From: an uncultured Candidatus Saccharibacteria bacterium
Lineage (GTDB): Bacteria; Patescibacteriota; Saccharimonadia; Saccharimonadales; AWTP1-31
Direction: 5' to 3'
NCBI GenBank assembly: GCA_964409615.1
Contig: CAYPDT010000001.1
Span: 78,629 to 142,628 of the forward strand
Length of the DNA stretch: 64,000 nucleotides
Shown here: piece by piece, positions 7,176-63,668 of the stretch
Numbering within the stretch: the first letter of the stretch is position 1
Layout: each line of letters opens with the position of its first letter
Notes under the pieces: generated by a model
Seen by the model: the letters and a program-made list of their open reading frames with translations, nothing else
The model's database searches: none
What the model was told of the DNA's origin: nothing
Translations under genes and position numbers: made by a program

Positions 7176-8465
<1,290 letters not shown>

Positions 8466-21856: not shown

Positions 21857-22645
21857 TCAATCATAGCTTACAAATTCCAACGGCAACCCGTGATACACCA
21901 ACTCCTCATCCCAATCTACCTCAATCGGCCGCAACCAGATATTTTTCTCGCCACTCAGCAAGCGTTCTTCAGTTGTGGTGTAGAGTTCTGAATCCCACAT
22001 AAGGTCGGTTGACATCTTAATAATGCGTTTCTCGGTATTGTCGTTGCCAGCTACTAATAATAGGTATGGGTAGCGGTAGTCTACCTCGTCGGAGTAATCG
22101 ATATGCTGGTTTATGCGCTTTCGGATAATCCAGCTTTGTTCACCAGCAGGGATATATTCTACGAAGAGTTCTGGGGCATCTTCGTCGTCCGGTGACAGCA
22201 ATAGCCAAGGTATAGGGTTGATGTATGTTTCCGGGTCAAGTTGGTACTTGGTGTAGGTGCGGAACATTTTTGGGTAGTTGCGGTGTATATTCAGACTAAA
22301 CTTCGGATAGCGGTAGTATTCGTCTATCTGGTGTTCAGTAAAGTCCTTGTTTTTGTAGTGGATCTGGGTACGGGGGATATCTCGTGATTTTAGGTAGCGT
22401 ATGCCAGCAGGTGCTAAGTAATAGGTAGCTGGTCGTCTATCTATCCTGTAAGTGCCCTCGTATTTCTTCGCAACGTATCCTTGATCTACTAGTACTGCTA
22501 ATCTTTCGTATATTGTTGATCTGTCTTTCTTTAATAGTTCAGCTAGTAAGTCAGTTGTTAGGAATCGGTATTTTAGTAATGCTAGTAATATTGCAGTTTG
22601 TGAAGGACTAATTTTGTATCTTGCTCTTGTCTCCGCCCGTCTCAT
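21857..22645 (-). CDS. Replication-relaxation-family-like winged-helix protein (element A)
   Basis: 262 aa. N-terminal wHTH pattern SPSQTAILLALLKYRFLTTDLLAELL...TIYERLAVLVDQGYVAKK...YYLAPAGIRYL. Paralog of 33446..34213. Confidence 0.55.
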   Translation of the reverse strand: MRRAETRARYKISPSQTAILLALLKYRFLTTDLLAELLKKDRSTIYERLAVLVDQGYVAKKYEGTYRIDRRPATYYLAPAGIRYLKSRDIPRTQIHYKNKDFTEHQIDEYYRYPKFSLNIHRNYPKMFRTYTKYQLDPETYINPIPWLLLSPDDEDAPELFVEYIPAGEQSWIIRKRINQHIDYSDEVDYRYPYLLLVAGNDNTEKRIIKMSTDLMWDSELYTTTEERLLSGEKNIWLRPIEVDWDEELVYHGLPLEFVSYD

Positions 22646-22775
22646 GGTTTCTTCTCCTATATGTATATATAAAAGAGGAGAAGTTGAAAGTAAAGGTATA
22701 ACAGGTTAAAGTCATTTGTAAATTACCCTGTGCCTTAGTGGGGATTTTGAACAGCAGTTCTAGACAATAATAGTC

Positions 22776-22805
22776 TTGCAACTATTCATATTTGGGTGCT
22801 ATACT
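22776..22805 (+). promoter_or_regulatory. Candidate promoter for the small-ORF/recombinase A operon
   Basis: TTGCAA (22776-22781), 18-nt spacer, extended -10 TGCTATACT (22797-22805), about 35 nt upstream of the ATG at 22840. Confidence 0.4.
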
Positions 22806-22839
22806 ATCCATATAAAGCATAGTGCTAGAGGGTAGTAAT

Positions 22840-22980
22840 ATGGGTAGAACTAAGGGCGCAACCAACAAAGAAATACCGCTTCCAGAAGTCTATACATTAT
22901 CGCCGGAGCAACGCTTGCACGTTATAGCTGACTTGCTGATCGAACTCATATGCGAGGAAGAGGTATGCAGCCAGGAGTAG
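22840..22980 (+). CDS. Small element protein (46 aa, MGRTKGATNK...), homolog of 32505..32699
   Basis: Manually translated: MGRTKGATNKEIPLPEVYTLSPEQRLHVIADLLIELICEEEVCSQE. Aligns with MARTKGSKNKQTTALSEFVYMPSEERLKLIANLVIDRVIEDQ in element B. Overlaps the recombinase start in both elements. Not in the ORF track. Confidence 0.45.
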   Translation: MGRTKGATNKEIPLPEVYTLSPEQRLHVIADLLIELICEEEVCSQE

Positions 22981-24698
22981 AACGGCGTAACGCTGTCATA
23001 GCTATTCGGGTATCGTCCGATAAGCAGTTTCAGGAAGGCGATTCCCCAGAAGCACAACGTGAACAGCTCCAGCAACTTGCGGACAACCTGAATGCACAAG
23101 TGGCCAAGGTCTTTATATTTGCTGAATCTGGTGCAAAACTTCATCAGCCAATGCAGGAGGCAATCGATTACTGCGCCGACAGACGCAACAACATTCAGCT
23201 ATTCCTTATTAAGTCGATTGATCGGTTTACTCGTGGCGGTGCTGACTTTTACGCTCCTTTGAAACGCCAGCTTGATGCTATCGATGTACAGCTAGTAGAT
23301 AAATACGGCGTAATTAGTCAGAACCGAGTCAATACCTTAGAGCACTTGGGTGTGGAGTATAGCTGGAGTAAATATTCACCAAGTCAGAAGATTGAGTACT
23401 TAGAAGCCGAACGTGCCAAAGATGAACTACGTGACATATTAACCCGCACTGTCGGTGCATCGGTACGCTATACACGACTGGGTTACTGGATGCGACAACC
23501 GCCTTACGGTTTTGTGAGCGAGAAGACCGAAACCCGCAATGGCAAGCGTGCCATCTTAAAGCCCCAGCCTACTGAAGCTCCACTTATTAAACGGATGTTT
23601 GAAATGCGTGCCACAGGAACAATGCACGACAAAGACATTATTGCTGAGCTCAATCGCATGGGTTTTCGCACCAGAACGCACTATATACGAGACAAACAAG
23701 ACCGCTCAAAGATTATTAGTAGACGAGGTGGCAATCCACTCGATAAAGATGCTATGGACTTATTCCTACGTAATCCGATTTATGCTGGGGTTAATAACGA
23801 AAAGTGGACACAGGGCACACCAGTACGCACCGTGTTTGATGGGTTGGTGAGTATTGATACATTTAATGCTGCCAATCGGGGCAAAGTCATGATTATCGAG
23901 GACGGAAACGATATAGAGATTAAAAAGGAGGCAGCGCCAGAACACCAGCTCAACAAAGGAATTAAAAGCCCCGAGTTTGCCTATCGACGATTTATTGGTT
24001 GCTCGAAATGTGGCAGACCCATGTACGGTAGCTCCAATCGTGGACAAGGCGGTAAACTGTATCCGGCTTATCATTGCGACAAAGGACACTACTTCCGTAT
24101 TCCCAAAGCCGAGCTAGAGGCGACTGTTGTTGAGTTCGTAAAGAATATAGCCTTACCCCAAGAACAGATAGATCTAATAGCCAGCACCGTCATGGCTGAA
24201 TGGGATAAGCGCCTGGAGCACCTCGTAGCCGATCTAGCACGCTACGACACGCAGATTAAGGAACTGGAATTAGAGGCCGATATGGCCGTCAAAAAGCTTA
24301 AGATGGTCGAATCGGAAACAGCAATTAAATATATGGAGGCAGATCTTATGAACATCGAACAAAAGATACGTGAGCTACGAGCCGAGAAAGATAAGAAAAC
24401 GAGCGAGAAGCCGATAAACATGGAGCGAATCGTAGCGAGGGTTAAGTATTTTCTGGAACACCTCGATGAACTGCTCATAAAACAGATTGACCCGATCAAA
24501 AAAGCACAGTTCTTTGGGGTATTTTTCGATAAAATACCAACATACGCAGAATTAAAATCTGGAACTCAAAATGCGGCCAAATTAACAGAGGTCAGCAAGC
24601 TTTTTGAACTTGCCGACCTCAATTTACCTGGTTTGGTGGCTCCTCCCAGACTCGAACTGGGGACACAAGGCTCTTCAGGCCTCTGCTCTACCAACTGA
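22950..24698 (+). CDS. Large serine recombinase (element A)
   Basis: 582 aa. Catalytic region AVIAIRVSSDKQ...SIDRFTRGG, recombinase domain, Zn ribbon CSKCGRPMYG...YHCDKGHY, coiled coil. The last 21 codons (LVAPPRLELGTQGSSGLCSTN*) are the antisense of tRNA-Phe. Confidence 0.9.
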   Translation: MRGRGMQPGVERRNAVIAIRVSSDKQFQEGDSPEAQREQLQQLADNLNAQVAKVFIFAESGAKLHQPMQEAIDYCADRRNNIQLFLIKSIDRFTRGGADFYAPLKRQLDAIDVQLVDKYGVISQNRVNTLEHLGVEYSWSKYSPSQKIEYLEAERAKDELRDILTRTVGASVRYTRLGYWMRQPPYGFVSEKTETRNGKRAILKPQPTEAPLIKRMFEMRATGTMHDKDIIAELNRMGFRTRTHYIRDKQDRSKIISRRGGNPLDKDAMDLFLRNPIYAGVNNEKWTQGTPVRTVFDGLVSIDTFNAANRGKVMIIEDGNDIEIKKEAAPEHQLNKGIKSPEFAYRRFIGCSKCGRPMYGSSNRGQGGKLYPAYHCDKGHYFRIPKAELEATVVEFVKNIALPQEQIDLIASTVMAEWDKRLEHLVADLARYDTQIKELELEADMAVKKLKMVESETAIKYMEADLMNIEQKIRELRAEKDKKTSEKPINMERIVARVKYFLEHLDELLIKQIDPIKKAQFFGVFFDKIPTYAELKSGTQNAAKLTEVSKLFELADLNLPGLVAPPRLELGTQGSSGLCSTN

Positions 24699-24709
24699 GC
24701 TAAAGAGCC
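24634..24709 (-). tRNA. tRNA-Phe (anticodon GAA), CCA encoded
   Basis: Reverse complement folds as GGCUCUU-UA-GCUC-AGUUGGUA-GAGC-A-GAGGC-CUGAAGA-GCCUU-GUGUC-CCCAG-UUCGAGU-CUGGG-AGGAGCC-A-CCA (76 nt). Confidence 0.9.
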
Positions 24710-24785
24710 AGATTGTACTCGCGGACGAGCACAACTGCTGTTTGGTCAACGTGTCTAGGATACAGTATCAGGGGTAATTTTACAA

Positions 24786-25100
24786 TTACTTCTTCTTGAA
24801 TCGGCCAACATCGCGGGTGCTTAGTTTGCTAAGAACGCGCTCCATTGCTGGGTCTAGTTGTAAGCCCTGACTGTTTGCAATACAAATAGCTGCATGAATC
24901 ACATCTGCAAGTTCGTCTTCTAACAGTTCATGTTCTTCAGTAGGCTTTTTTGGCTTATCGCCATACTGGTGGTTCATAATGCGAGCAACTTCGCCAACCT
25001 CTTCTGTTAAGCGAGCCAAGATACTGAGCGGTTCCCAGTAAGGCTTTTCATATTGCTGTAGTTCATCATCAACACGTTTTTGGTAATCTGCTAACGACAT
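24786..25100 (-). CDS. MazG-like nucleotide pyrophosphohydrolase (small all-alpha NTP-PPase)
   Basis: 104 aa. LTEEVGEVARI...EELEDELADVIHAAICIANSQGLQL, the EExxE / ExxD metal-binding helices of the MazG family. Confidence 0.8.
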   Translation of the reverse strand: MSLADYQKRVDDELQQYEKPYWEPLSILARLTEEVGEVARIMNHQYGDKPKKPTEEHELLEDELADVIHAAICIANSQGLQLDPAMERVLSKLSTRDVGRFKKK

Positions 25101-25525
25101 AATTCAACAACTCCTATCTCATCGGGGTTAAAGTCGAGTCGCTTCATTTCATCGTGGTTAAAGTAACCGACTTCAGATGCTTCATCAGTAACGGTAAATT
25201 GGTCGCTGGCAAGTTGACCAGTGATAACAAGCTTGAGGGCGCGGTAATCGTATTTACTGTTTTTGCCATCCCAGAAACCTACTGGCGTGGCATCGATATG
25301 CTTGATATCCACGCCCAGCTCTTCTTGAATTTCTCGGCGGATACACTGCTCTACCGTTTCGCCGTAATCCCAACCACCCCCAGGCAAACACCAGCTACCG
25401 TCATCTTTGTTGCGCACCAACAGCGCACGGCCATCTGCATCGCGGACCATCAGCTTGATTGACACCCGGAAGAAAGAAGGCGGAATCACATACTGCTTGG
25501 TATCTATAGAGAAGCTATGGCTCAC
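25091..25525 (-). CDS. NUDIX hydrolase
   Basis: 144 aa. Complete Nudix box [24 protein letters not shown] (Gx5Ex7REUxEExGU). Confidence 0.85.
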
Positions 25526-26280
25526 TTACCCAGCTCTTTAGCGACAAATTTCTTAACATCACTCATAGAATCCATCAGCTGAGCTGGGAAGATAATGGTA
25601 CTGTTCTTTTCTACGGCGATTTCGCTGAGCACCTGCAGGTTGCGCAGCTGTAATGCAATTGGGTTCTTAGCAATCTCGGCTGCAGCCTCACCAAGCTTGG
25701 CAGCGCTTTGAGCCTCACCTTCTGCAGCGATAATCTTAGCTCGCTTTTCACGTTCTGCTTCTGCCTGCTTGGCCATAGCGCGTTGCATAGATTCTGGAAG
25801 GCGGATGTCTTTGAGCTCGACAGTACTAATGTACACGCCCCATTTTTCGGTAGCGATATCTAAGATAGATTTAATTTTCTCGTTAATGACCTTGGTTTCA
25901 CTGAGCACTTCGTCGAGATTACTCTGGCCAACAATATTACGAATAGTAGTTTGGGCAATTTGGTAAGTGGCCGATACAACATTACTGATTTCTACTAATG
26001 ACTTGATGGAGTTGTTTACCTGATAGTAGGCAACGGCACCAACTTCGATAGAAACGTTATCTTTGGTAATAATTTGCTGACTGTCGACTGGTAGCGTAAT
26101 GATGCGCATATCCACCTTTTTCATGATGTCAATAAACGGAATGATTACCCGCAGTCCAGCTAGCTTTGGTGCTGAGCGCACTCGGCCAAGTCGGAATACT
26201 ACGCCTTGCTCATACTGATTGACCAATCGTAGGCCCATAATTACACCAACGGCCACTAGAATTAACAGAAAAATCCACAT
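25522..26280 (-). CDS. SPFH / band-7 (stomatin-like) membrane protein
   Basis: 252 aa. N-terminal TM, then [11 protein letters not shown]...ITKDNV...VAYYQV and the C-terminal [21 protein letters not shown] coiled coil typical of the stomatin/HflK/C family. Confidence 0.9.
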
Positions 26281-26352
26281 TTCGCATCTCCTTTATATAT
26301 AGGTATCGTAGCACCAGACTCTCGAAAGCGAAACCATTTTTTGTTAGCTAGT

Positions 26353-27294
26353 TTACCAATTCAGATAAGCACCGTCCGGCTGGAAATACATTTCTCCGGT
26401 CTCTAAGATTTCTACCGAACCCGGCTCTAGAAATTCCGGAATCCGCTCTATTTTCTTCCACATGGGGATATCACTATTTCTGGCTGCCACATTGTCGCGT
26501 GTTAGAATGAAATTCTCAACAACTGATTGTGCTACTTTTTGCCCACGAAATTTATCTAAAACTGCTCGAGCAATCCGTTCATTCTTGCCTAACTGAGGAT
26601 ATCGCGGAGTAATTTGAAGTACATTATTGTCATACGACTTACTTGCTTCATCATATTCCCAGTCGGCATACTCTAAACCTACCGACCATTGGTCAACAGT
26701 GGGCAATCGGGCGCGTAGTTGTTGATGAGTTGCCGCGGGTTTGCCAGATTTAACGAGTAATTTACGGACACGGGGGCTGACGCCACCAATAACTGCCGTT
26801 TCTTCAATTCGGTCACCATATACTCCAACGTACAAGCATTCCCACCGTACGATACACGATGCGCATATTCTTTGTGCAAGTGGCAGTTGTTCTAGATGTA
26901 CTGGGTGGAATATCACTGGGTCTTTACCTTTACAGTTTGCATCTTTTTTAAGCAATTCGCGTAAATCATCTATATAGTCGAGGGTTGCCTGGTCTTTCAC
27001 CCGATTGTCTTCGTCGGCTTCGGCTAATAGTCGTCTGACCAATAGAGCGTGTTCAGATAGCTGCTGTGCATAACGCATAAGAAATTCCGGTATCAGTTGG
27101 TTTTGCTCCAACATACCAGAGCGAGCAAACAAGTCACGGACCAATTCAATATCCTCGCGTGAGGCAATAACATCTTCTAGTAATGACATGTCATTCTCAA
27201 TAGCAGCCATAAAAATCGTATTCTGGGTTTCACTAAAATCGCTAACTATTTCGCTTACTTCATCTTCAGTTAACCGCCGGCGGCGAATTGCCAC
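26353..27294 (-). CDS. 313-aa protein with an internal WhiB-like (Wbl) 4-Cys domain
   Basis: Residues 121-180 read CKGKDPVIFHP-x13-CASCIVRWEC...AVIGGVSPRVRKLL. This is C-x22-C-x2-C-x5-C with the DPxxFxP and G[VI]xGG..S..R motifs of Wbl proteins (nt 26755-26934). It is flanked by about 120-aa N- and C-terminal extensions. Confidence 0.55.
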   Translation of the reverse strand: MAIRRRRLTEDEVSEIVSDFSETQNTIFMAAIENDMSLLEDVIASREDIELVRDLFARSGMLEQNQLIPEFLMRYAQQLSEHALLVRRLLAEADEDNRVKDQATLDYIDDLRELLKKDANCKGKDPVIFHPVHLEQLPLAQRICASCIVRWECLYVGVYGDRIEETAVIGGVSPRVRKLLVKSGKPAATHQQLRARLPTVDQWSVGLEYADWEYDEASKSYDNNVLQITPRYPQLGKNERIARAVLDKFRGQKVAQSVVENFILTRDNVAARNSDIPMWKKIERIPEFLEPGSVEILETGEMYFQPDGAYLNW

Positions 27295-27344
27295 CGCGTG
27301 AGGCGTGGCCAGTATGGAAGATTGCTGGCCGGCCTCTGAGGGGC

Positions 27345-29009
27345 CTACGCTAAAAAACTTGGCGTCTTGCTGAGTGGCCTTACGGTTCGCGTAAAGGTTG
27401 GCTCTTTATAGCCAATTGGAGTAGCGGCTTGTAGCCAGGTGTCACCGGTTTCAGAATCGAATCTCAGCAACCCGTTTACATGGCTCGCATTATTCAACTT
27501 AGCAATCAAGGCGGTTATCTCGCCATGCAGTGTGTCTGAGTCTTTAGAAAGCAGACCGACTTCTTGGAGTCGAGGAATGTTAATTCGACAGTCTGGTGAA
27601 AGCACCAATAGATTCAAGAGCGTAACTTCTGGTCTACTAAATTGTAATGGCCTACCATTGAGTACACAGCGTTTAGCAGGCTCCAGACGTAGTAGTTCAA
27701 TATCGCCATCACGCGCAGGAATATAGTCGGCATGGACGTAGTCTCCTGCAAGGAAATTTCTCAATTTCGCAGGGTCTGCGCTTGGGTCACCGAGGTATTC
27801 GGCAAGTCGTGCAATATCCCACACTCCAAATTCCGCATCCACAAATGGTTCAGCAGTAGAATCCTCATCTTTTTCAGTGTCGCGATTTGCTTCGCCTGCA
27901 TTAGTTCTTTGAGTCAGTTGAGGAGATGGTTTTCTATCGGAATCTTTAGCCCCTCCTTCGTTCGCAGTAGAATCGTTATCTGAATATTCAACGACCCCAG
28001 ACGTAATTCTTGATGCTATGGCACGCTGATTAGGAATCAACTGACTCATAGAATCACCGGTGTATGCCTTTAGTCCTTTTAGTCGAGAGTTATACGCTCC
28101 AGGACTTAAAACTAATAGCTTGCACATGTCTTGATTACGCAAAAAACCAAAGGGTGAAAGGGCAAGCAAGATATTCATCACTTCACGCTGCCCTTCAAAC
28201 CGGACAACTGAAGTTGTACCGTCCGCATGCAATAACGTGTTGTTACTAATCGCCCGCAACGATGGCAACAAAGCGTCAAATTTACCGCCTCGGTATTCCG
28301 TATAAACGTCTACTAACCGCTGTCCCAAATGACCTTCAGCTAATTGACCTGGAATATCAAACATTTCTGTAACACGTATAAAGTCTGAAATTAATCCGCG
28401 CTTATCAACAAAATCAGGTAGCTCACCGCGCGAAATACAATCGAGTGCTTCATCTATGAATTGTTGTCTGGCAGTTCGCTCAACAGGAGCTGCTGCTTCA
28501 ACCGGCTGAGTGGTGATGATTGGCTGTGATTCGTCACTGCGTTCTATCAGCCAAACCAGGTCATCATCAGTATCTTGGTCGTCAGCTTCTATTACCGGAA
28601 GTACCGTATTAGCTTCTTCATCTAGCGTAGCTGGTGTTTCTACTGTTTGTGTTGGTGTTGGTGTTGGTGTTGGTGCTGGCGCCGGCGATTCCGCGCACGA
28701 ATCATCCAGGCAGAAGTCTTCTTCGGTAAGTTTGATTGCAGGCTGGGCAGCTACAGGTAATGCTGTTTCAACATCAGCTCGTGCTGCCTCTGGCAGCAAA
28801 ATAGACGTTCCTCCCAATAGTCGCTGCATTTCGGCAAGGACCGCCGTAGCTCTTTGTTCATCTGCGAACCCATCTACTCGTGCAAAGCTGTTTGCCAAAG
28901 CAATGTGTGCAAGCGCTTCACGTAAGTGGGCGTCGGCAGCAGTAATTTCTGCTGTCATCGATTGAGCAGCGTGTTCCATCCCATTACTTGCAGCAGTTGG
29001 AGTAGTCAT
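27345..29009 (-). CDS. Acidic 554-aa protein with a C-terminal OmpR/PhoB-type winged-helix (Trans_reg_C-like) domain and no receiver domain
   Basis: The C-terminus LRLEPAKRCVLNGRPLQFSRPEVTLLNLLVLSPDCRINIPRLQEVGLL...ITALIAKLN...IGYKE fits the Trans_reg_C pattern. Has a PAPAPTPTPTPT linker. Paralog of the divergent neighbour. Confidence 0.45.
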   Translation of the reverse strand: MTTPTAASNGMEHAAQSMTAEITAADAHLREALAHIALANSFARVDGFADEQRATAVLAEMQRLLGGTSILLPEAARADVETALPVAAQPAIKLTEEDFCLDDSCAESPAPAPTPTPTPTQTVETPATLDEEANTVLPVIEADDQDTDDDLVWLIERSDESQPIITTQPVEAAAPVERTARQQFIDEALDCISRGELPDFVDKRGLISDFIRVTEMFDIPGQLAEGHLGQRLVDVYTEYRGGKFDALLPSLRAISNNTLLHADGTTSVVRFEGQREVMNILLALSPFGFLRNQDMCKLLVLSPGAYNSRLKGLKAYTGDSMSQLIPNQRAIASRITSGVVEYSDNDSTANEGGAKDSDRKPSPQLTQRTNAGEANRDTEKDEDSTAEPFVDAEFGVWDIARLAEYLGDPSADPAKLRNFLAGDYVHADYIPARDGDIELLRLEPAKRCVLNGRPLQFSRPEVTLLNLLVLSPDCRINIPRLQEVGLLSKDSDTLHGEITALIAKLNNASHVNGLLRFDSETGDTWLQAATPIGYKEPTFTRTVRPLSKTPSFLA

Positions 29010-29136
29010 TCAACCTAGTGTACGTAGTTGTTATGTTCTGAGGCAAGGCGCAGGTATTAATTTACAACAATGCTTAGCAGACAAAGCGACAACTTTATTG
29101 ATTCGCTGGTATTGCAGTGCTATGCTTCGAGACAAG

Positions 29137-30531
29137 ATGACTATTCATACCGCACCAGCACTCCCATTGTCTCCAGAATTCAGTTTGCCGGAAGCATCTC
29201 TATCACCCGACGACCATTTACTGCGAGCGGCCGAACATATTGCGATTGCAGCTTTGCACGCATCACTTGCACAAGGCCAAGAAACCGATAGACTCCAGCC
29301 TATCGCACAAGAACTCTCCATACAATTAGGTGAAATAGAACGCTTGCTACCAGCTGCCGCCGTGGCACTATCTACCATTGTTGCACCTCCTGAGGTAGAG
29401 ACTCCCGAAGTGACAATCGACCTTGCCGATAATCCTGATGGTTCTACAGCAGAACCAACAATTACTACCATCGAGGATGTACTACCTCATCCAGTTTCTG
29501 AAGAGACTCCAGAGCACTCACCACAACCCGAATTATTTGATGACGCAACTCGGGCAAGATACCAGACAGTTTTGGGGAAAATTTTTGGAGACGACTCTAT
29601 TCAAGACCTGCATGATTCGGCGCTCATTCAACTCTTCCAAAGTGTAAGCTCGCGGTACACAGACATGACCATCACTCGACTGAGCAGTCAGGCAAAGCAA
29701 GACCGTGCTGCACAATTACAGCTTCATCTAGATGGAAAATCCAACCTTGAAATTGCTCAACAATATGGCAGCACTCGAGAAGCAATCAGTCAGGCTCTGC
29801 GGAAATTCTACGAAAGTTTTAACAGTCGGGTTACGCCAGAAGAGCTCGAGCAAACGCTTTCCAATGCCCAGGACGAAGTATTAAAACCAGAAGCATTGGA
29901 CGCTGCAACCACTGAAAAACCCGAAATACACCTGACCGACAGCGGCATAGTCATCAACAATGTTTGGTACGCAGCATCATCCGAACAATTACCCTACCTA
30001 GATATAATGCTCAATCTTGATACTGCAATTAGCGCTTCACGCTTAGCAGCCAAGCTCTCGAGTAGCGATGATGCAGCTACCAATTCTGAGGTTGACGTCG
30101 CCGAAGAGGCGTTGATTGACCTGCACCGACGAGGTATTGTAGAAGAAGTAAGTCATGAAATTGATGGTGAGATTCTAGTTGAATATAGAGTAAGCGCTAA
30201 TCCTGAAATTGGACTCAAGCGGAGAAATATTGTCACCATTGACGATAAAGTGCTCTACCTGACTGATTTAGATGTTGACGTACTGCAAATACTGACCGCA
30301 GATTTCATCTCGCTAAACACTAGTGCTATTTCGAGACTATTGAGCCCCGACCAACTTCTCACCAAACCAGTTTTCGATAAAATGGCCCGTGGTATCAAAA
30401 AATACTTAATTCCACAGGGTATTGTACAAAAAGTCTATCCACCGGATAGTCAAGTTACACCTGAATTTCAAGTTTCAAGTCAGTATTTCGGCGCTGTGCA
30501 CGATACTATCGCTGAACTAAAACGCAACTAA
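29137..30531 (+). CDS. Paralog of 27345..29009: sigma-70 region-4/LuxR-like HTH plus C-terminal OmpR-type winged helix, no receiver domain
   Basis: ORF track 29098..30531. Start chosen at MTIHTAPA to match the paralog's MTTPTAA. HTH LHLDGKSNLEIAQQYGSTREAISQALRKF. C-terminus IVTIDDKVLYLTDLDVDVLQILTADFISLNTSAISRLL. Confidence 0.5.
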   Translation: MTIHTAPALPLSPEFSLPEASLSPDDHLLRAAEHIAIAALHASLAQGQETDRLQPIAQELSIQLGEIERLLPAAAVALSTIVAPPEVETPEVTIDLADNPDGSTAEPTITTIEDVLPHPVSEETPEHSPQPELFDDATRARYQTVLGKIFGDDSIQDLHDSALIQLFQSVSSRYTDMTITRLSSQAKQDRAAQLQLHLDGKSNLEIAQQYGSTREAISQALRKFYESFNSRVTPEELEQTLSNAQDEVLKPEALDAATTEKPEIHLTDSGIVINNVWYAASSEQLPYLDIMLNLDTAISASRLAAKLSSSDDAATNSEVDVAEEALIDLHRRGIVEEVSHEIDGEILVEYRVSANPEIGLKRRNIVTIDDKVLYLTDLDVDVLQILTADFISLNTSAISRLLSPDQLLTKPVFDKMARGIKKYLIPQGIVQKVYPPDSQVTPEFQVSSQYFGAVHDTIAELKRN

Positions 30532-30555
30532 CTGGTGCATTCACTCAAACAAATT

Positions 30556-30576
30556 AAAAACCCACCGACAGGTGGG
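30556..30576 (-). terminator. Intrinsic terminator downstream of tRNA-Val
   Basis: Minus strand: CCCACC-tgtc-GGTGGG followed by TTTTT, 9 nt after the tRNA-Val 3' end. It also sits 25 nt after the stop of the plus-strand gene. Confidence 0.6.
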
Positions 30577-30584
30577 ATGTAATA

Positions 30585-30661
30585 TGGTGGGCGCTGAGGG
30601 ACTCGAACCCCCGACCCCCTCGGTGTAAACGAGGTGCTCTAGCCAGCTGAGCTAAGCGCCC
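30585..30661 (-). tRNA. tRNA-Val (anticodon UAC), CCA encoded
   Basis: Reverse complement GGGCGCUUAGCUCAGCUGGCUAGAGCACCUCGUUUACACCGAGGGGGUCGGGGGUUCGAGUCCCUCAGCGCCCACCA. Anticodon loop UUUACAC. Confidence 0.9.
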
Positions 30662-30729
30662 AAACCAATAGCAACTATTTTACACTTTTCACTAATATTA
30701 TTCAAGCTGTTAGTATAGTTAAACGCTAT

Positions 30730-30758
30730 TTACGAACCACTACCAAAAATGGTAGAAT
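30730..30758 (+). promoter_or_regulatory. Candidate promoter of tRNA-Leu(GAG)
   Basis: TTACGA (30730-30735), 17-nt spacer, TAGAAT (30753-30758). The tRNA starts 13 nt downstream. Confidence 0.5.
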
Positions 30759-30770
30759 AACCGTTGATTT

Positions 30771-30857
30771 GCGCGAGTGCTGGAATTGGTAGACAGGCTA
30801 CGTTGAGGTCGTAGTGTTCGCAAGGACGTGGAGGTTCAAGTCCTCTCTCGCGCACCA
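30771..30857 (+). tRNA. tRNA-Leu (anticodon GAG), long variable arm, CCA encoded
   Basis: GCGCGAGUGCUGGAAUUGGUAGACAGGCUACGUUGAGGUCGUAGUGUUCGCAAGGACGUGGAGGUUCAAGUCCUCUCUCGCGCACCA. Anticodon loop UUGAGGU. Confidence 0.9.
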
Positions 30858-32533
30858 CAAGTGACCAATTGGTCACTTTTTACTTTAAAGAGCTCATTCA
30901 GACCTGTTATTAGGCTTGGGTTTGTGGTTCCAGATTCTATTTCTGCATAGGTTGGAGTTTGGTTAAAAAGTACTCCAAAAAAGTTAGCTTTTTTAAGCGG
31001 ATCACTCTGTTGTAACAGTAGGTAATCCATGTGTTCCAGAAAGTATCTTAGGTACTTCAGAACTAGGTCAAAATTAAGTGGTTCTTTTGCTTTCTTCACT
31101 AGTTTTTCCTCCTCCAGTGTTTTAATTTCTTTCTCGATCTTCACTACATCCTCCTCAATGTATTTAATAGCGGTTTTACTACTCAGCATCTTGAGCTTAT
31201 CGACTAAAGCCCCTAATTGCAGTTGCAACTCAGTAATTCGCTCATCTATGGATCGAGTCTCGACTCCCAGTGATTCTTGACGCGTTGCCCATGTTTCTTC
31301 CAGAACAGTGATCAAACTGTCTATCTGCTCTTGTGGCATGGTTACACGGCGTACAAATTGCTCAATAGTACTCTCGAACTCATCTTTTGCGACACGAAAA
31401 TAGTGGCCACGCTTGTTGCAGTGGTAAGCGGGATACTTTTTCCCACTCCGACCCTGAGATGCGCTACCGTAGAGCGGCTTCTCGCAACCTGAGCACATAA
31501 CAATCTTTCTATATGGATAGTCTGCGTTAAATCTACCTTTACGCTGTTGGTGTTCAGGAGCTTCGCGCTTGATTATCTTAGTCTTACCATCGTCCTCTAC
31601 GAGCGTAATCTTGCCTCGGTTAGCCTTGTTGAAGTCCTCATACGTCACGAGACCTTCAAACTTTGCCTTAACAGGCTCGCTATCAGTCCATTTCTCGCAT
31701 ATAACTCCAGCGTAGATAGGATGCTCAATAAACTTCCAAAATCGCTTCAGTGTAAGCTTATTGCCACCCATTGTTTTGGATACCTTGCCACTTGATATAG
31801 TTTTTCGCCTAATCATGGTTCGCGACTTGTAGCCTAAGCGGTTAATCTCATCAACAATCTGCTGGTCAGTTAAATTACCCTGGGAACGGAGTTCAAACAT
31901 CTTTAATACGTAAAACTCCTCACTCTCAACTGGCGCAAGTATGTAGCGTTTGCCATTTGGCGTATCAATACGCTGACTGCAATATCCATAAGGCGCACGC
32001 CGCATATAGTAGCCAAGTCGCGTGTAACGGACTTCTGCGCCTATCATACGGCTCATAATGTCTCTTAGTTCAGACTTTGCTCGTTCGGCTTCTAGTAGCT
32101 CTGTAGTGTGAGATGGCGAAAACTTGCTCCAATAATACTCCACCCCGAGGTGCTCCAGAGTATTAACCTTAACATTGCTAATAACCCCATACATATCTAT
32201 TAGCTCGATCCCTCGCGGCTCTAGCTGTCGTTTCAGCTGATCGTAGAAGTAAGATCCGCCACGCGTAAATCTGTCGATAGACTTAACCAGCACTACCTCA
32301 ATTCCATTTTTAGGATTAATTGCATAGTCGATTAGATTTTGCATCGGCTGTTCTTCGTGCGATGCAGATTCAAGGTAGGTCAGTGTTTTTACGATACGAA
32401 GATTACGATTTGGTGCGAACTTCTGCCCTTGTTCTATTTGCGCATCGGGTGAATCACCATCAATACTTTGGCCTGGCGTAGAAGCACGAACGCCCAGTAG
32501 TGTATTACGTGGTCGAGATTGTTCCAATAGCAT
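30836..32533 (-). CDS. Large serine recombinase (element B)
   Basis: 565 aa, roughly 55% identical by eye to recombinase A. LLGVRASTPGQ...SIDRFTRGG. Zn ribbon CSGCEKPLYG...YHCNKRGHY. The last 7 codons (CGARERT*) are the antisense of the tRNA-Leu acceptor/T-arm. Confidence 0.9.
   Translation of the reverse strand: MLLEQSRPRNTLLGVRASTPGQSIDGDSPDAQIEQGQKFAPNRNLRIVKTLTYLESASHEEQPMQNLIDYAINPKNGIEVVLVKSIDRFTRGGSYFYDQLKRQLEPRGIELIDMYGVISNVKVNTLEHLGVEYYWSKFSPSHTTELLEAERAKSELRDIMSRMIGAEVRYTRLGYYMRRAPYGYCSQRIDTPNGKRYILAPVESEEFYVLKMFELRSQGNLTDQQIVDEINRLGYKSRTMIRRKTISSGKVSKTMGGNKLTLKRFWKFIEHPIYAGVICEKWTDSEPVKAKFEGLVTYEDFNKANRGKITLVEDDGKTKIIKREAPEHQQRKGRFNADYPYRKIVMCSGCEKPLYGSASQGRSGKKYPAYHCNKRGHYFRVAKDEFESTIEQFVRRVTMPQEQIDSLITVLEETWATRQESLGVETRSIDERITELQLQLGALVDKLKMLSSKTAIKYIEEDVVKIEKEIKTLEEEKLVKKAKEPLNFDLVLKYLRYFLEHMDYLLLQQSDPLKKANFFGVLFNQTPTYAEIESGTTNPSLITGLNELFKVKSDQLVTCGARERT
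30861..30881 (+). terminator. Perfect 16-bp palindrome plus T5, 3 nt after tRNA-Leu(GAG): tRNA terminator and/or recombinase att core
   Basis: GTGACCAATTGGTCAC (30861-30876) followed by TTTTT. It lies inside the 3' end of the recombinase B coding sequence on the opposite strand. Confidence 0.45.
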
Positions 32534-32699
32534 GGTCTACCCTCAACTTACGCTCTATATGCTTATCGCCCTTTTGATCTTCTATTACACGATCAATCAC
32601 TAGATTTGCTATAAGCTTTAACCGTTCTTCACTCGGCATGTATACAAACTCGGATAGGGCGGTCGTCTGTTTATTCTTTGAGCCTTTGGTGCGTGCCAT
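32505..32699 (-). CDS. Small element protein (MARTKGSKNK...), homolog of 22840..22980
   Basis: ORF 32505..32732. Start set at MARTKG by homology with element A. Overlaps the recombinase B start by 29 nt. Confidence 0.5.
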   Translation of the reverse strand: MARTKGSKNKQTTALSEFVYMPSEERLKLIANLVIDRVIEDQKGDKHIERKLRVDHAIGTISTT

Positions 32700-32700
32700 C

Positions 32701-32883
32701 TTATAACTTCTTTCGGCTCGCCTTGGCTTCAAAGCCTAGGCTTATCTCTCGTTTAGTGAGTTTTCCGGTAATCTCATTCTGAACAAAGCAAATAATCCGG
32801 ACATCGGCAATCTCTACAATCATCTCTCCAACTGCTAATACTTTGAGCATTTGTCTTCTGTTTGATGATTTGACCTTACCCAT
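32701..32883 (-). CDS. Small hypothetical protein (element B)
   Basis: 60-aa ORF tightly packed between the RHH gene and the MARTKG gene. No motif recognised. Confidence 0.3.
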   Translation of the reverse strand: MGKVKSSNRRQMLKVLAVGEMIVEIADVRIICFVQNEITGKLTKREISLGFEAKASRKKL

Positions 32884-32945
32884 GTCTACCCTCCACTAAA
32901 AAACGTACCGTTGATAGGTACGCTTATAACTCGACTAACAGGAGG

Positions 32946-33158
32946 TTATTTCTCCCAGGGTCTGCCTGGTTTAGGTCTGTCTTTTAATTCTTGTTCCACT
33001 AACTTTTTAAGTTCTTTGTCGCCAGAACTGGCAAGGAGCTTCAGGATGAGTTCGCTAAGTGTCTTGCCGTTTTTCTGGGCAACAGCTTTAGCGCGGCTAC
33101 GAACCGCGTCTGACACTCGTATCTGCATACTCACTATCTTCCTGGACATAAGCCCCAT
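32946..33158 (-). CDS. Ribbon-helix-helix (CopG/Arc-like) DNA-binding protein (element B)
   Basis: MQIRVSDAVRSRAKAVAQKNGKTLSELILKLL shows the beta-strand then helix-helix pattern of RHH repressors. The true start may be the internal Met (about 33128). Confidence 0.55.
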   Translation of the reverse strand: MGLMSRKIVSMQIRVSDAVRSRAKAVAQKNGKTLSELILKLLASSGDKELKKLVEQELKDRPKPGRPWEK

Positions 33159-33445
33159 TTTAATACTTAATCAGTTTTTCTGCTACATATACCCTCGTTT
33201 AGCCGAATTATTAACGTACCTTCTACATATAAATAGTATTACTAATTAAACTAAATAGCAATACTAATTAACGATTTTCTGACGTAATATTTACTCCAAT
33301 AAAGGTTGCTACCGTAAGCAACGATTATTACTTAAATTAACAGATGTAAACCTACCTCAATATTCTTCCTCTATTATATAAATATAAGAGTGACAAGAGT
33401 ATAGTACAGAGACAGGAATAGAGAGCGGTGGTGAGAGAGTGTTAG

Positions 33446-34213
33446 ATGCCAAGAAAAGAGTACAAGTTAAATCAAAATCAAGTACAGTTTTTAAAACTAT
33501 TGTTTAAGTTTAGGTTTGCAAATACTGAGTTATTAGCAAGATATAAGAGTGTCAGTCAGACAGCTATTAAGAAAACATTGGCTAACCTTACTGAACGAAA
33601 GCTCATTGATCGACACTACGGCAGTTCCTACAAGTTCAGCGGTAGAGGCGCTGAGTACTACCTTACCCTTGAGGGTATGAAGTTGCTTAGGGATATGGGG
33701 CTAAGCCAGAAAGCCATGCGGACTATGTATAACAATACAAAGGCGACGCTTGAGTTTAGGCAACAATGTCTAGATATATTTGCAGCTTACTTACGATTAC
33801 GAGAACTCTATCCTGAAACCTTTAGTATGTTTACCCGTTCTGAGCTGGCTGATTTCGCTTATTTCCCCCAACCCTCACCAGATCTCTATTTGATACGCAA
33901 AACACCCTTAGATGACCTGATAAACGAGTACATGCTAGAAATAAACACCGACGCACGCTTTTTCGTCCAAAAAAAGCGGTTAGATGTCTATTTTGAACAC
34001 GCCGACTCAGGGGAGTGGGATGATCAGGGTAATGGCTATCCAATCTTGCTGTGGATATGTGGGGATAGTCGTATGGAAATGAAAGTACAAAAATATCTAG
34101 AGAACAGATTAGATGATCTTGAGGTGCGCACTACTACTTTGAAAGCATTGCTCAATAAGCACTCTCAGGAAAAAGTAATTTGGAGTACTGAAGAAAAGCT
34201 AGTTGATTTATAA
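33446..34213 (+). CDS. Replication-relaxation-family-like winged-helix protein (element B)
   Basis: 255 aa. LNQNQVQFLKLLFKFRFANTELLARY...TAIKKTLANLTERKLIDRH...YYLTLEGMKLL. Paralog of 21857..22645. A 9-bp hairpin at 34245-34266 follows. Confidence 0.55.
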   Translation: MPRKEYKLNQNQVQFLKLLFKFRFANTELLARYKSVSQTAIKKTLANLTERKLIDRHYGSSYKFSGRGAEYYLTLEGMKLLRDMGLSQKAMRTMYNNTKATLEFRQQCLDIFAAYLRLRELYPETFSMFTRSELADFAYFPQPSPDLYLIRKTPLDDLINEYMLEINTDARFFVQKKRLDVYFEHADSGEWDDQGNGYPILLWICGDSRMEMKVQKYLENRLDDLEVRTTTLKALLNKHSQEKVIWSTEEKLVDL

Positions 34214-34469: not shown

Positions 34470-37400
34470 TCAATCTAAGCCTGTTGTTGGCTTGATGATA
34501 TAGCTGTTCTGGCCGCCCACCTCGCCTTTTAGTCGTGGGAGACTAATCTTCACGCTCGTACCAGCTCCTACTTCACTGTCTATGGATATGGTCCCGCCGC
34601 TCTGTTCAATGACATGCTTGGCTACAAACATGCTCAAACCAAGTCCTTGGTGATCAAACGTCTGGGTGTCCGTACCACGCTGTAGTGGCTCAAATAGTCC
34701 ATTAAGTACTTCGGGGCTGAGGCCTGGACCATTGTCGCTCACCTTAATGGACACCTTATTTCTCTGGCTTTGCGCCCCTACAACTGCCTTGCTTCCTGCA
34801 GGGCTGTACTCTATTGCATTGCCAATAACGGCACTGAGAATGTAGTCGAGCTGGTCAGATTGAAGCGGCACTAACAGACCGTCCGCCACATTAGACTGTA
34901 ACGTACTGCCCTTTTCTTGTGCTAATCTTTGAACCGCAGGTTCAATAGATTGTTTGTAGTAACTTGCTGCGTCCACAGAAGCTGCTGGATTAATCTGCGT
35001 CAGACGTTGGTAACTCGTAAGTTCCTGAGTCAGCTTGTGCAACATGGTTAGTCCGTTGACAAGTAGATGAGCGTCAGGAAGCTGTGCCATACCTTCAGTC
35101 CCTTGACTCAACTGGTCGGTGTGGTGCTGCAAAGCAGGCGCTACTGACTGCAGGAGCTCTTCTTTTTGCTTGGTCACCATCTGAACATTTGCTAATTCTC
35201 GGTCGATGTCAGCATGTAAGACTTTGGATCGCTTATGGTAGACGTAGTAAATTCCAATAAGCAGCGCACTGAAAATGGCTAGGAGTATCAAGTTAACGAG
35301 GCGGGCACCGCGCTTCTCGTAGGCACCTGTCAACAGCAGGGTCAGGTCAATAGCGGCGATAGCCAGGGCAATCCCAAGCAAGCTAGCCCACATCGTACGT
35401 GCCTTAGTGAGCAGTTTTTGGTCAGAATCCGCGAAGCTTGATTGACCACCCTGTGCCAGTGAGGCTTCCACTGAACCTTCGAAACCTTGCACCGTTGAAC
35501 GCAGTGCAATGAGTTTCTGCCCAAAGTTGGCAAGGAATATACTATCCAGTGTATGCTTGCTGGTCATGAGTTCATGGGCACCCTGCAAAACTGCTAACGG
35601 CGTATTAAGGTAGTGGGTGATGATCTCAAGGAATTGCTGAGTCATGCTGGCTCGTTGTTTAGCTTTTGCGATGGCCTGCTGAGCATCTCGTGTAAAGCGG
35701 TACTCTCGCCATGCTTGCAGTACATAAGCAAGCGCAAGCAACAGGAGTAAGGATATGAATAGGTAGTAATCTGCTCCAGGCTTTCGAAGCATGTCACTAC
35801 CTGATGAGCTCTTTTTGGTAGTCGCTCGATCTCTAGTCTGCCGGTACAAATTCTTAGGTGTTGGTATGTTACTTTTGTCTAGATTAGTATTTTGAGAGCT
35901 CGTTGGCGCACGAGGAACGGAGCTGATACTAACTGTTACGGCACAAGTATTTGCGACAGTTGTTGTACCCTGACTGGTTTTAATCCGCGCGGTTGCTTTG
36001 TATGTCCCATTCTTTATATACCTATGATTGGCGGCGGGCGCAGATGACTCAATACTGCTACCGTCTCCAAAATCAAATAAGTAGGACTGAATATTAGTGT
36101 TACTGACTTGTCCCTTTGCCGTGAAGCTAACATCTAGTGGTGCCGTTCGTAGTGCGTTGCTAGTGTCTGCCAGTGCTACGAGGCGAGTGCAGGCATAGCT
36201 GGTCGTTGGCTGAGTAGGCGGAGGTACACTGGGTGTATGATAGGTGGCACGCGCTGCATTATTGATAGGCAATAAGGTCAGATCTTGATGCATGGCATAG
36301 GCGTTTTCAAACTGCTGCAAAGAATCTGATTCGTTTGCATCATCCAAATAATATCCCCCGAAGATAGCACCTTCGGCAGTAGTAATGGTCGCCGTCAGGG
36401 TTATATCGAACTCTATACTTTGATCAACTGCCAGTGGAATTGAATCATCTGCAGCAACACACGCAATCAACCCATTGTTAGGATAAAGATCATTGAAGTA
36501 TGGGTCATCAAAATCAGAGCCAGTTCCGATGTATTGACACCCGACCTGACTCGTATTTGTGTTGGAAACATAGGTGAATCCAGCTGGCATAAAGTAGTAT
36601 AGTCCACCACCAAAGAATGAATTATATGGCCCATAATTTGTAATCGTAATGTGCGACGATACCGTTGCTCCACTCTGTATAGGTGATGGTCCTGGCGCAG
36701 TAATAGCCAGTCCGAAATCAGTCTGAATCACGGTATTAATACGGATGTTATGGTTGGAGCCAAGCGTAAGGCCGCCACCGAGCGGCCATCGAGCGCTATC
36801 TAGCGATAGATCTTGTATATTTTGGTACTTTATACTGCCACCATTAAGAGACAGGAAATCGGGACTTACGTAGGACCAATCTAGATCAGTCGTATTGTCG
36901 CCTGGCGACACTGTGTAGGTGAACGTCAGAACTGCTGTCCCCGATCCTCCGGTATACTGAGCGGTCAGTCCGTCACGCAAGTTCAGTTGGGGCGCGCCAG
37001 TAACATAGACTGGGGTGGCAAACGTTAACTTTAGGGCAATTACCGTACCCACACCATATGTTCCATCGGGGGTTGATGTATCAATGGTTGGCACCTCACA
37101 CTTCTCGCCTGCATCGATGATGACCCAGTTGTAGTCGGCTGTAAGCGTTTGATGAACTGTAATAGCCTGGCAATACGCTACACTAGGTGCATCAAGTGGC
37201 ACATTCGACTGAACGCCATGTGCTAGCCATCCGATAAGAGATTGATCGTAGCTCTGCAAAGAAAAACCTTCTGAGCCGATCAGCATTCCTTCCATAGTTG
37301 TGACATTGCCAACATCCCAGGTATCAAGTGACTGGTCAAAGGCGCTGGCATTCTGGAACATACCTCCCATATTAGTAACATGGCTCACATCCCAGCCGTT

Positions 37401-37520
37401 GAGGGATTGGTTGAAGGATGTAGCTCCACTGAACATTCTATTCATGTTGGTAACATGGCTCACATCCCAGTCGCCCAGCGGCTGGTCGAAGGCGCTGGAA
37501 TTCATGAACATACCATCCAT
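34470..37520 (-). CDS. Sensor histidine kinase paralog, C-terminal fragment (3 LRR units, cap, Ig-like, DUF11, PKD, TM, H-box, TM hairpin, HATPase_c)
   Basis: 1,016 aa. AFDQPLGDWDVSHVTNM repeats. H-box ITHYLNTPLAVLQGAHEL. HATPase_c boxes IGNAIEYS, DNGPGLS, GLGLSMFVAKHV. Same frame as 37536..39044, with only a TAA plus 5 sense codons between them. Confidence 0.8.
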   Translation of the reverse strand: MDGMFMNSSAFDQPLGDWDVSHVTNMNRMFSGATSFNQSLNGWDVSHVTNMGGMFQNASAFDQSLDTWDVGNVTTMEGMLIGSEGFSLQSYDQSLIGWLAHGVQSNVPLDAPSVAYCQAITVHQTLTADYNWVIIDAGEKCEVPTIDTSTPDGTYGVGTVIALKLTFATPVYVTGAPQLNLRDGLTAQYTGGSGTAVLTFTYTVSPGDNTTDLDWSYVSPDFLSLNGGSIKYQNIQDLSLDSARWPLGGGLTLGSNHNIRINTVIQTDFGLAITAPGPSPIQSGATVSSHITITNYGPYNSFFGGGLYYFMPAGFTYVSNTNTSQVGCQYIGTGSDFDDPYFNDLYPNNGLIACVAADDSIPLAVDQSIEFDITLTATITTAEGAIFGGYYLDDANESDSLQQFENAYAMHQDLTLLPINNAARATYHTPSVPPPTQPTTSYACTRLVALADTSNALRTAPLDVSFTAKGQVSNTNIQSYLFDFGDGSSIESSAPAANHRYIKNGTYKATARIKTSQGTTTVANTCAVTVSISSVPRAPTSSQNTNLDKSNIPTPKNLYRQTRDRATTKKSSSGSDMLRKPGADYYLFISLLLLLALAYVLQAWREYRFTRDAQQAIAKAKQRASMTQQFLEIITHYLNTPLAVLQGAHELMTSKHTLDSIFLANFGQKLIALRSTVQGFEGSVEASLAQGGQSSFADSDQKLLTKARTMWASLLGIALAIAAIDLTLLLTGAYEKRGARLVNLILLAIFSALLIGIYYVYHKRSKVLHADIDRELANVQMVTKQKEELLQSVAPALQHHTDQLSQGTEGMAQLPDAHLLVNGLTMLHKLTQELTSYQRLTQINPAASVDAASYYKQSIEPAVQRLAQEKGSTLQSNVADGLLVPLQSDQLDYILSAVIGNAIEYSPAGSKAVVGAQSQRNKVSIKVSDNGPGLSPEVLNGLFEPLQRGTDTQTFDHQGLGLSMFVAKHVIEQSGGTISIDSEVGAGTSVKISLPRLKGEVGGQNSYIIKPTTGLD

Positions 37521-45055: not shown

Positions 45056-45233
45056 GTGTGTTTCTCCGAACCAGCCTAAATAGCTTATGCCTACCAAGTA
45101 TACTATACATTCAACAGATTTATAATCTATACACCTAACTCACTCTGGGATTCAGTACAGGTACCTTACATTTGGATCTCCTGGTACGCTTTAGTTCGAA
45201 GATGCATAAGCGTATACTTGCAGTAGAATTCTT

Positions 45234-63537: not shown

Positions 63538-63668
63538 CATAATCGAGAGTGGTTTTGTTGCCCGGTTACGCTAGCGACTCCACAATACTCAAGCGTCCAA
63601 ATACGAGTAATGCTTCACTGTCTACAACCAAAACTTTTTGGTGAATGCATAATACTACATTTTTGATA

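Follow-up and report, generated by a model that had tools for sequence, protein, structure and literature searches.

WhiB-like (Wbl) proteins are described as exclusive to Actinobacteria and actinophages, with an origin stated as unknown, and reviews as well as a structural paper of 2026 still define the family in these terms (PMC6282962 and PMC13013590). Canonical members, such as WhiB of Streptomyces venezuelae (PDB entries 8dy7 and 8dy9) and WhiB1 of Mycobacterium tuberculosis (6ono and 5oay), have ca. 80 to 130 amino acids (aa) and carry a basic tail, whereas in WhiB7/WblC the Fe-S core is followed by a dedicated DNA-contacting element, a short AT-hook. There are also multi-domain precedents, i.e., WblP, which is fused to an extracytoplasmic function (ECF) sigma factor (PMC6282962), and actinophage WhiBs of ca. 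210 to 250 aa (BFVD). Here, we describe a Wbl gene located in a stretch of 64,000 nucleotides (positions 78,629 to 142,628 of contig CAYPDT010000001.1, referred to here as the window) from an uncultured “Ca. Saccharibacteria” bacterium, that is, outside the Actinobacteria. Its 313-aa product, the long Wbl, differs from canonical Wbls in that the core is internal and a predicted folded domain of ca. 130 aa takes the place of the basic tail. We favor, with a probability of about 0.55, a reading in which it is a three-domain Wbl resident in Saccharibacteria, formed by an N-terminal helical domain, the four-cysteine core, and a C-terminal winged-helix-like domain. No paper in the searchable literature connects WhiB with any genome of Saccharibacteria or Patescibacteria.

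The internal domain, the only Wbl domain in the window, is a real WhiB-type domain as judged from profile matches and structural models. Its cysteines follow the pattern C121-x22-C144-x2-C147-x5-C153, with the spacing of S. venezuelae WhiB, and all four are invariant in the five subfamilies of long Wbls described below. An earlier reading made from the letters of the DNA alone (the sequence-only reading) had reported this spacing and the embedding of the domain in a much longer protein, and it was right on both counts; the first spacer of 27 residues that it gave for WhiB1 fits the five-residue gap found there in the alignment to 6ono. The DPxxF[FH]P motif of canonical Wbls, which the same reading had seen as DPxxFxP, follows the first cysteine as DPVIFHP (residues 125 to 131), and a VSPRVRKLL stretch runs to residue 180. 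The GVWGG-like motif that it proposed stands only in part. The turn reads AVIGG (residues 167 to 171), in which G170 and G171 are invariant throughout the family and are all that is kept of the canonical G[V/I]WGG, while the Trp position is occupied by I, Y, M, Y, and T across the subfamilies.

Profile searches agreed with this assignment. Pfam family PF02467 (Whib), which had been suggested as a check, matched residues 117 to 178 above its threshold (E value of 4.9e-7; 30.6 bits versus a gathering score of 23.6). The relatives scored 43.3, 27.0, 24.5, and 18.5 bits, the last of them (P0003) being subthreshold, and WhiB families of PHROG also matched the long Wbl (best E value, 9.6e-9). Using the single sequence as a phmmer query against the PDB, S. 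venezuelae WhiB (8dy9_H) was retrieved with an E value of 5e-4, ungapped over the cysteine motif, and WhiB1 with 0.07; with a family profile, the values were 2.4e-9 and 3e-7, respectively, followed by WhiB4 (2.4e-4) and WhiB7 (1.5e-3). In the structural comparison, the AlphaFold model showed the helical core and GG turn of canonical Wbls, and its top Foldseek matches in the PDB were 8dy9_H and 8dy7_H (probability of 1.00, target template modeling [TM] scores of 0.76 and 0.69, and E values of 0.06 to 0.1). WhiB7 superposed on it with a root mean square deviation (rmsd) of 1.5 Å over 51 residues, and the best viral structure matches were phage WhiBs. The mean predicted local distance difference test (pLDDT) score was 74.7 for the whole protein, with moderate values (64 to 80) in the Wbl core.

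By analogy with described Wbls, we infer that a [4Fe-4S] cluster is held by the core, which would dock on sigma factor region 4. Among the aromatic-patch positions (AP1 to AP4) of Wbls, AP2 and AP3 are the critical sigma contacts, and 98.7% of the proteins have at least two patch aromatics, including at least one of AP2 and AP3 (PMC13013590). In the phmmer alignment to 6ono, F129 (AP2) and H130 (AP3) of the long Wbl are aligned with F17 and F18 of WhiB1, and on this alignment the pair gives the protein the aromatic complement found in that large majority. Across the five subfamilies, the pair appears as F/H, F/H, M/H, F/F, and F/Y. We also sought rpoD for its His-Pro docking motif and did not find the gene in the window or in the sampled Saccharibacteria loci.

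Relatives of the complete protein were scarce. When 1.84 billion cluster representatives were searched exhaustively with phmmer, 75 matches were obtained, only five of which (P0001 to P0005) aligned beyond the Wbl core. P0001 was 97% identical to the long Wbl, while P0002 to P0005 (243 to 339 aa) were 28 to 30% identical; the ca. 70 ordinary Wbls, mostly of 72 to 157 aa, matched residues ca. 105 to 190 (E value of ≤1e-3 and 31 to 52% identity). A word-indexed search of 5.8 billion proteins retrieved one protein with 97% identity, and similar searches with alignments of the family and of the neighboring 554-aa-like protein (see below) recovered near-identical proteins only. The near-identical copies are labeled “hypothetical protein” in IMG, and no NCBIfam model matches the long Wbl. 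The five subfamilies share only 25 to 30% identity, yet the four cysteines and the GG turn are invariant, and in a neighbor-joining tree of Wbl cores (without bootstrap) the long proteins formed one group. A scan of GTDB species representatives with the single protein returned nothing, an absence that means little since the same scan, which is insensitive, missed P0005 in a representative metagenome-assembled genome (MAG). The scan of JGI metagenomes gave two short contigs with ordinary Wbl cores only.

A second kind of extended Wbl was found in two other contigs, L049 (10001-10720) and L050 (7146-7835), both with 52 to 53% GC. These proteins (P0063 and P0068; 229 to 239 aa) have an N-terminal extension and a canonical core that keeps GIWGG and the SERERRR tail, and their genes are flanked, in a conserved order, by Mur ligase/Ddl genes and by leuS. 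S16 and LeuRS of these contigs are not close to those of any PDB organism, mycobacteria included.

The N-terminal domain is predicted to be all helical, with helices over residues 10 to 118 (pLDDT mostly 64 to 85) and a weak linker at residues 80 to 100, and is present in four of the five subfamilies, P0005 being the one that lacks it. The GTG start of the gene has no Shine-Dalgarno sequence and is supported by two observations, namely, a conserved N-terminal motif (RRLT-EE-V...Q..LF.A.I.ND), which is kept in distant relatives from four of the five subfamilies even 5' of the called starts, and the excess of synonymous over nonsynonymous differences between strains in codons 1 to 28 (6 versus 3). 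DUF3349 (PF11829) was rejected as the identity of this domain, as it scored 16.6 bits versus a threshold of 28.3 (E value of 0.014) and no DUF3349 structure was among the Foldseek matches. The gene call of P0002 (283 aa; L030 6343-7368) is probably too short, with the motif ALTAEELDEHVAELSDAQSALF in frame upstream of the called ATG and no canonical start between them.

The C-terminal domain is common to the long Wbls of the family, with W212, A242, G251, and R266 as invariant residues. Modeled alone, it reached a pLDDT of 78.6 and a predicted TM score of 0.71, with much of the domain at a pLDDT of 85 to 95, and its predicted order is helix, short strand, helix, helix, and β-hairpin. The compact Foldseek matches were mostly winged-helix DNA-binding domains (OmpR-C, PhoB, forkhead, ToxR, and GlnR), and the best individual structures were OmpR-C (2jpb and 1odd), PhoB (1gxp), FOXN1, and ToxR. 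All of them are weak and nonsignificant (E values of 0.13 to 1.5, TM scores of 0.36 to 0.54, and 8 to 18% identity), including OmpR-C, which had the lowest E value (0.13; probability of 0.82 and TM score of 0.36 to 0.42), so that DNA binding by this domain is a lead offered by the models and not a result. The Pfam search of the domain gave no family, Trans_reg_C included, and, unlike regulators of the OmpR/PhoB type, the long Wbl has no receiver domain. A relationship between the C-terminal domain and the 554-aa-like protein was discarded (hhalign probability of 0.1%). In design, a Wbl Fe-S core followed by a dedicated element for DNA contact, the prediction resembles WhiB7/WblC; however, the element there is a short AT-hook and here a predicted globular domain, and the similarity between the two proteins is limited to the core.

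The genome is assigned to Saccharibacteria by the similarity of its UvrC (58256-59752), which is 87% identical to that of a Saccharibacteria MAG and 57 to 83% identical to those of ca. 20 further Saccharibacteria MAGs, compared with ca. 31 to 36% for other Patescibacteria. The suspicion of the sequence-only reading that the DNA was not actinobacterial and might be Saccharibacteria was thus well founded. The window has a GC content of 46% and carries DUF285, LTD-CotH, and giant surface-protein genes. A single NCBI contig of 698,658 bp encodes exact copies of its Wbl, Band7, and UvrC proteins. Regarding the relatives, P0005 is encoded in CAZXLT010000019, whose prefix corresponds to a Saccharibacteria MAG (CAZXLT01) with a UvrC 76% identical to that of the window, and the remaining family contigs have 44 to 48% GC and homologues of window genes.

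The Wbl locus has a recognizable gene order in these contigs. The arrangement in the window and in L001 and L003 (query and P0001) is 554-aa–Wbl–Band7–NUDIX(–MazG). In L047 (P0003), it is a 1,285-aa gene (homologue of window 39805-42750), a 96-aa remnant of the 554-aa gene, Wbl, Band7, and NUDIX, and in L032 (P0005), Wbl and Band7. L030 (P0002) has a 553-aa gene divergent from a 549-aa gene, followed by Wbl and then by homologues of the 981-aa and LTD-CotH genes, and L048 (P0004) has a 554 homologue split into 304 and 227 aa and then Wbl. Band7 is therefore found 3' of the Wbl gene in L001, L003, L032, and L047 (83% identical to that of the window in L032 and 44% in L047), and the position beside Band7/NUDIX is kept in three subfamilies. 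The flanking genes of the relatives have diverged to 35 to 63% identity and the Wbl locus is still syntenic. From this shared order, we conclude that the long Wbl occupies a recognizable chromosomal neighborhood. Between the window and L003, the Wbl gene has accumulated 52 synonymous and 10 nonsynonymous differences, with a ratio of nonsynonymous to synonymous substitution rates (dN/dS) of 0.047 that indicates a clearly functional gene; the values for Band7 and the 554-aa gene were 0.005 and 0.19, respectively, the latter gene being fast evolving.

The window also contains several very large genes of predicted surface or secreted type (8989-16857 on the plus strand and 34470-39044 and 39805-45097 on the minus strand), which comprise a 2,622-aa open reading frame (ORF), DUF285-PKD-HATPase_c and DUF285 proteins, a 981-aa DUF11 protein, and an LTD-CotH protein. 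The last two have homologues close to the long Wbl gene of relatives (L030 and L047).

The most constant companion of the long Wbl is the 554-aa-like gene placed directly upstream, and the two genes are probably cotranscribed. Homologues upstream of Wbl were found in L030 (549 aa; E value of 3e-23), L048 (304 plus 227 aa), L003 (171 plus 339 aa), and L047 (the 96-aa remnant). In L003 (414-2060), which belongs to the 97%-related strain, the split falls within an acidic, proline-rich linker. The 554-aa protein belongs to no Pfam, PHROG, or PADLOC family; a C-terminal segment (LxGRxLxxxxxExxxLNLLxLSP) looked OmpR-like by inspection and gave a weak match to CarR in the PDB (E value of 0.59). On its other side, the 554-aa gene faces its divergent 477-aa paralogue, similar to it in the N terminus (36% identity over 53 aa, both proteins opening with MT(T/I)(P/H)TA) and also provided with a long acidic, proline-rich linker. 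Residues ca. 193 to 252 of the 477-aa protein resemble a helix-turn-helix (HTH) of the KorA or sigma region 4 type, with subthreshold matches to PF16509 KORA (22.1 bits versus a cutoff of 26.7) and TIGR02937 (E value of 0.0027), and an orthologue (553 aa; E value of 3e-27) occupies the same divergent position in L030. We treat the Wbl, 554-aa, and 477-aa genes as a single putative regulatory module, and the intergenic region between the two paralogues is presumed to contain its promoters and operators. No convincing operator-like palindromes were common to the intergenic regions of the window and L030, and a scan of 24600-30900 for promoters and terminators gave sites no more numerous than in shuffled sequence.

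If the long Wbl is a resident three-domain protein, the four invariant cysteines would hold, as in known Wbls, a [4Fe-4S] cluster whose state (set by O2, NO, redox, or iron) would gate its activity. Through the F129/H130 pair, the core could bind to region 4 of the cell's own primary sigma factor or to another HTH of the sigma-4 kind, for example, that of the 477-aa protein, while the modeled winged-helix-like domain would provide sequence-specific DNA contacts, replacing the short basic tail or AT-hook. The Wbl might also act together with the protein encoded by the linked 554-aa gene. As for its history, the most likely course is an old capture of the core from an actinophage or an actinobacterial host, after which it gained its additional domains and was kept in one chromosomal neighborhood of a narrow Saccharibacteria lineage. 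A more ambitious proposal, which we put forward tentatively and consider possible at best, is that this lineage of Saccharibacteria runs its own Wbl-based Fe-S sensing module, consisting of the long Wbl with its coevolving 554- and 477-aa partners and working with a non-actinobacterial sigma-70 factor or independently of sigma. Given that cultured Saccharibacteria live on Actinobacteria, such a module could make the epibiont responsive to the same cues (redox, NO, or iron) that its host reads.

Several observations weigh against the resident three-domain reading. The family is very rare: among 15 billion proteins, it comprises ca. 17 sequences in five clusters at 50% identity. The Wbl of MAG CAZXLT01 lacks the N-terminal domain and has just 28% identity to that of the window, while the adjoining Band7 is 83% identical, which suggests that divergent versions have been exchanged at the locus and is closer to what would be expected of an accessory cassette open to exchange than of a core gene under steady inheritance. 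Within the Wbl core, both aromatic Trp residues have been lost, that of AP1 being replaced by L115 and that of AP4, in the turn, by I169, and the canonical basic tail (SERERRR) is weak or degenerate; the sigma interface may consequently have changed or been given up. As mentioned above, the winged-helix assignment is not significant, and the models were built from only 5 or 6 sequences.

The first of the alternatives is that the Wbl, 554-aa, and 477-aa genes form a small exchangeable accessory cassette, e.g., a module for regulation or immunity left from a degraded integrative element or plasmid, which would control the genes of that element and not the physiology of the cell. Apart from the sparse distribution and the uneven identities of Wbl and Band7, it finds support in the subthreshold similarity of the 477-aa protein to KorA, a plasmid repressor, in the state of the 554-aa gene, which is split in one strain and survives as a remnant in L047, and in the GC content at third codon positions (GC3) of the three genes (0.355 to 0.379), which is 1.4 to 2 standard deviations below the window mean. 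Besides, the 5.9-kb segment that contains them lies between two tRNA integration hot spots. However, the segment has no integrase, replication, transfer, or structural genes, PHROG gave no match for the 554- and 477-aa proteins and PADLOC none for any of the three, the place beside Band7/NUDIX is maintained in three subfamilies, and the Wbl gene is under strong purifying selection. On balance, we regard the cassette as rather unlikely, but it deserves to be kept in mind.

Two related integrative elements lie in regions 21857-24709 and 30771-34213, mirroring each other in orientation and each inserted at a tRNA gene, with a large serine recombinase apiece (48% identical to each other and both matching PHROG integrase) paired with a winged HTH (wHTH) protein of ca. 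260 aa (28% identity between the two paralogues; E value of 2e-22). The Wbl segment is on the 5' side of both tRNAs, so it falls outside both elements. No att-type repeats of the tRNA-Phe and tRNA-Leu 3' ends were found in the window. The sequence-only reading had taken the nearby replication-relaxation-like genes as sharing the taxonomic flavor of the Wbl, a connection that did not survive. The match to Replic_Relax (PF13814) is subthreshold (19.9 bits versus 25.3 for ORF 33446-34213), the genes pair with the recombinases outside the Wbl segment, and they are absent from the Wbl neighborhoods of relatives.

It could also be argued that the Wbl-like core is a degenerate relic that binds zinc or nothing and acts as a mere structural hinge, without Fe-S sensing or sigma binding. 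The loss of the AP1 and AP4 Trp residues and of the SERERRR tail would fit this idea, as would P0003, with its subthreshold Pfam score and a Met in the AP2 position. Nevertheless, the conservation of the cysteines and of the intervals between them, together with the GG turn and the aromatic pair of AP2 and AP3, at 25 to 30% identity would not be expected under relaxed constraint, and natural Wbls are reported to tolerate a non-aromatic AP1 or AP2, as in WhiB6 and WhiB4 (PMC13013590). We regard a relic of this kind as improbable.

We consider slightly less probable still a recent horizontal gain, i.e., a foreign Wbl in a Saccharibacteria genome coming from an actinobacterial host or an actinophage. 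In its favor, Wbls are described as exclusive to these donors, the Saccharibacteria in culture live as epibionts on Actinobacteria (PMC12369343; TM7x, for instance, has an actinobacterial host), the movement of wbl genes is attributed to phages, and mobile elements flank the segment. However, the closest short Wbl cores are only 33 to 45% identical, over ca. 70 residues, and no viral contig or phage genome carried the N- or C-terminal domains. In IMG/VR viral contigs, the long architecture was absent and only ordinary phage Wbl cores appeared, while 50,697 phage genomes (INPHARED) gave three core-only matches at 33 to 35% identity; a phage origin of the whole architecture was thus rejected. 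BFVD contained no full-length relative of the long Wbl, and of the extended actinophage WhiBs only the core aligns (Phrann and Geralt, with full-length TM scores of 0.2 to 0.3 and an rmsd of ca. 20 Å). The composition is native or low, with 44.5% GC versus 46% for the window and a slightly low GC3 of 0.38 in the Wbl gene, and nothing indicates a high-GC donor. Finally, the locus is syntenic in relatives with strongly diverged flanking genes, and the recombinase elements are outside the tRNA genes that bound the segment. The acquisition from the host or its phages proposed in the sequence-only reading is hence not supported as a recognizable event, with no close donor, native composition, conserved synteny, and a low dN/dS. 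For a resident three-domain Wbl, the most economical history would be a capture of the core in the distant past, with the other domains added later, and donor and direction of transfer are conjectural.

That the long Wbl mimics host Wbls and acts on host sigma-A is a far-fetched idea, as the protein has no secretion signal and nothing else speaks positively for it.

A Wbl family resident in Saccharibacteria would extend these proteins to a second phylum, whose cultured members are attached to Actinobacteria, and would make it possible to see, in a natural setting, if the Wbl core is able to function with a sigma-70 factor that is not actinobacterial. Its architecture, a Wbl core combined with a folded putative DNA-binding domain, would be new. 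In these reduced genomes, the long Wbl is among the very few recognizable transcription-factor candidates with a putative sensory cofactor, and it may provide a handle on how the epibionts sense their environment. This significance is limited by the rarity of the family, by the inferred nature of all functional steps, and by the fact that gene flow from host to epibiont is expected.

Table 1. Features of the long Wbl locus and its surroundings (window coordinates)
Feature	Position	Strand	Description	Basis
Large serine recombinase	22950-24698	+	3' end overlaps tRNA-Phe 3' end	
wHTH proteins (Replic_Relax/TrmB-like)	21857-22645 and 33446-34213		ca. 260 aa; each paired with a recombinase	
tRNA-Phe	24634-24709	-	Left boundary of Wbl segment	
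Wbl segment	24710-30584		5.9 kb; between tRNA-Phe and tRNA-Val/tRNA-Leu	
MazG	24786-25100	-		Pfam
NUDIX	25091-25525	-		Pfam
Band7/SPFH	25522-26280	-		Pfam
Long Wbl gene	26353-27294	-	313 aa; GTG start; stop at 26353-26355	ORF and Pfam Whib
C-terminal domain, family-specific, winged-helix-like (predicted)	26356-26739	-	Residues 186-313; ca. 130 aa	
Wbl [4Fe-4S]-type core	26746-26958	-	Residues 113-183	
Cys codons of Wbl core	26932-26934 (C121), 26863-26865, 26854-26856, 26836-26838	-		
N-terminal all-helical domain (predicted)	26959-27294	-	Residues 1-112	AlphaFold and motif
554-aa gene	27345-29009	-	Directly upstream of Wbl; 50-nucleotide gap	
Divergent intergenic region	29010-29136		Between 554-aa and 477-aa paralogues	
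477-aa gene	29098-30531	+	Divergent paralogue of 554-aa gene; real start probably ATG 29137	
tRNA-Val	30585-30661	-	Right boundary of Wbl segment	
tRNA-Leu	30771-30857	+	Right boundary of Wbl segment	
Large serine recombinase	30836-32533	-	3' end overlaps tRNA-Leu 3' end	

The window has other features as well. The NAD-dependent DNA ligase ORF at 7446-8465 (plus strand) has only the OB-fold end, zinc finger, HhH, and BRCT domains. There is no adenylation domain upstream, where two uncharacterized minus-strand genes, a PLD-like gene, and an XRE-type HTH are found, and the ORF could be a disrupted or split ligA. Two PLD-like (PLDc_2) proteins of 165 to 168 aa are encoded 42 kb apart (5512-6018, plus strand, and 47536-48033, minus strand) and may be paralogous genes of the nuclease or phospholipase D family. 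Toward the end of the window, a c-di-GMP-II riboswitch (63551-63634, minus strand; 57.3 bits versus a gathering score of 53.5) precedes the gene at 60915-63476 (minus strand), the 853-aa product of which has a glucosaminidase domain (peptidoglycan hydrolase). Upstream of the riboswitch there is a promoter-like site (TTGACA/TATTAT), and between the riboswitch and the gene come a stem resembling a terminator and a ribosome-binding site (AGGAGG).

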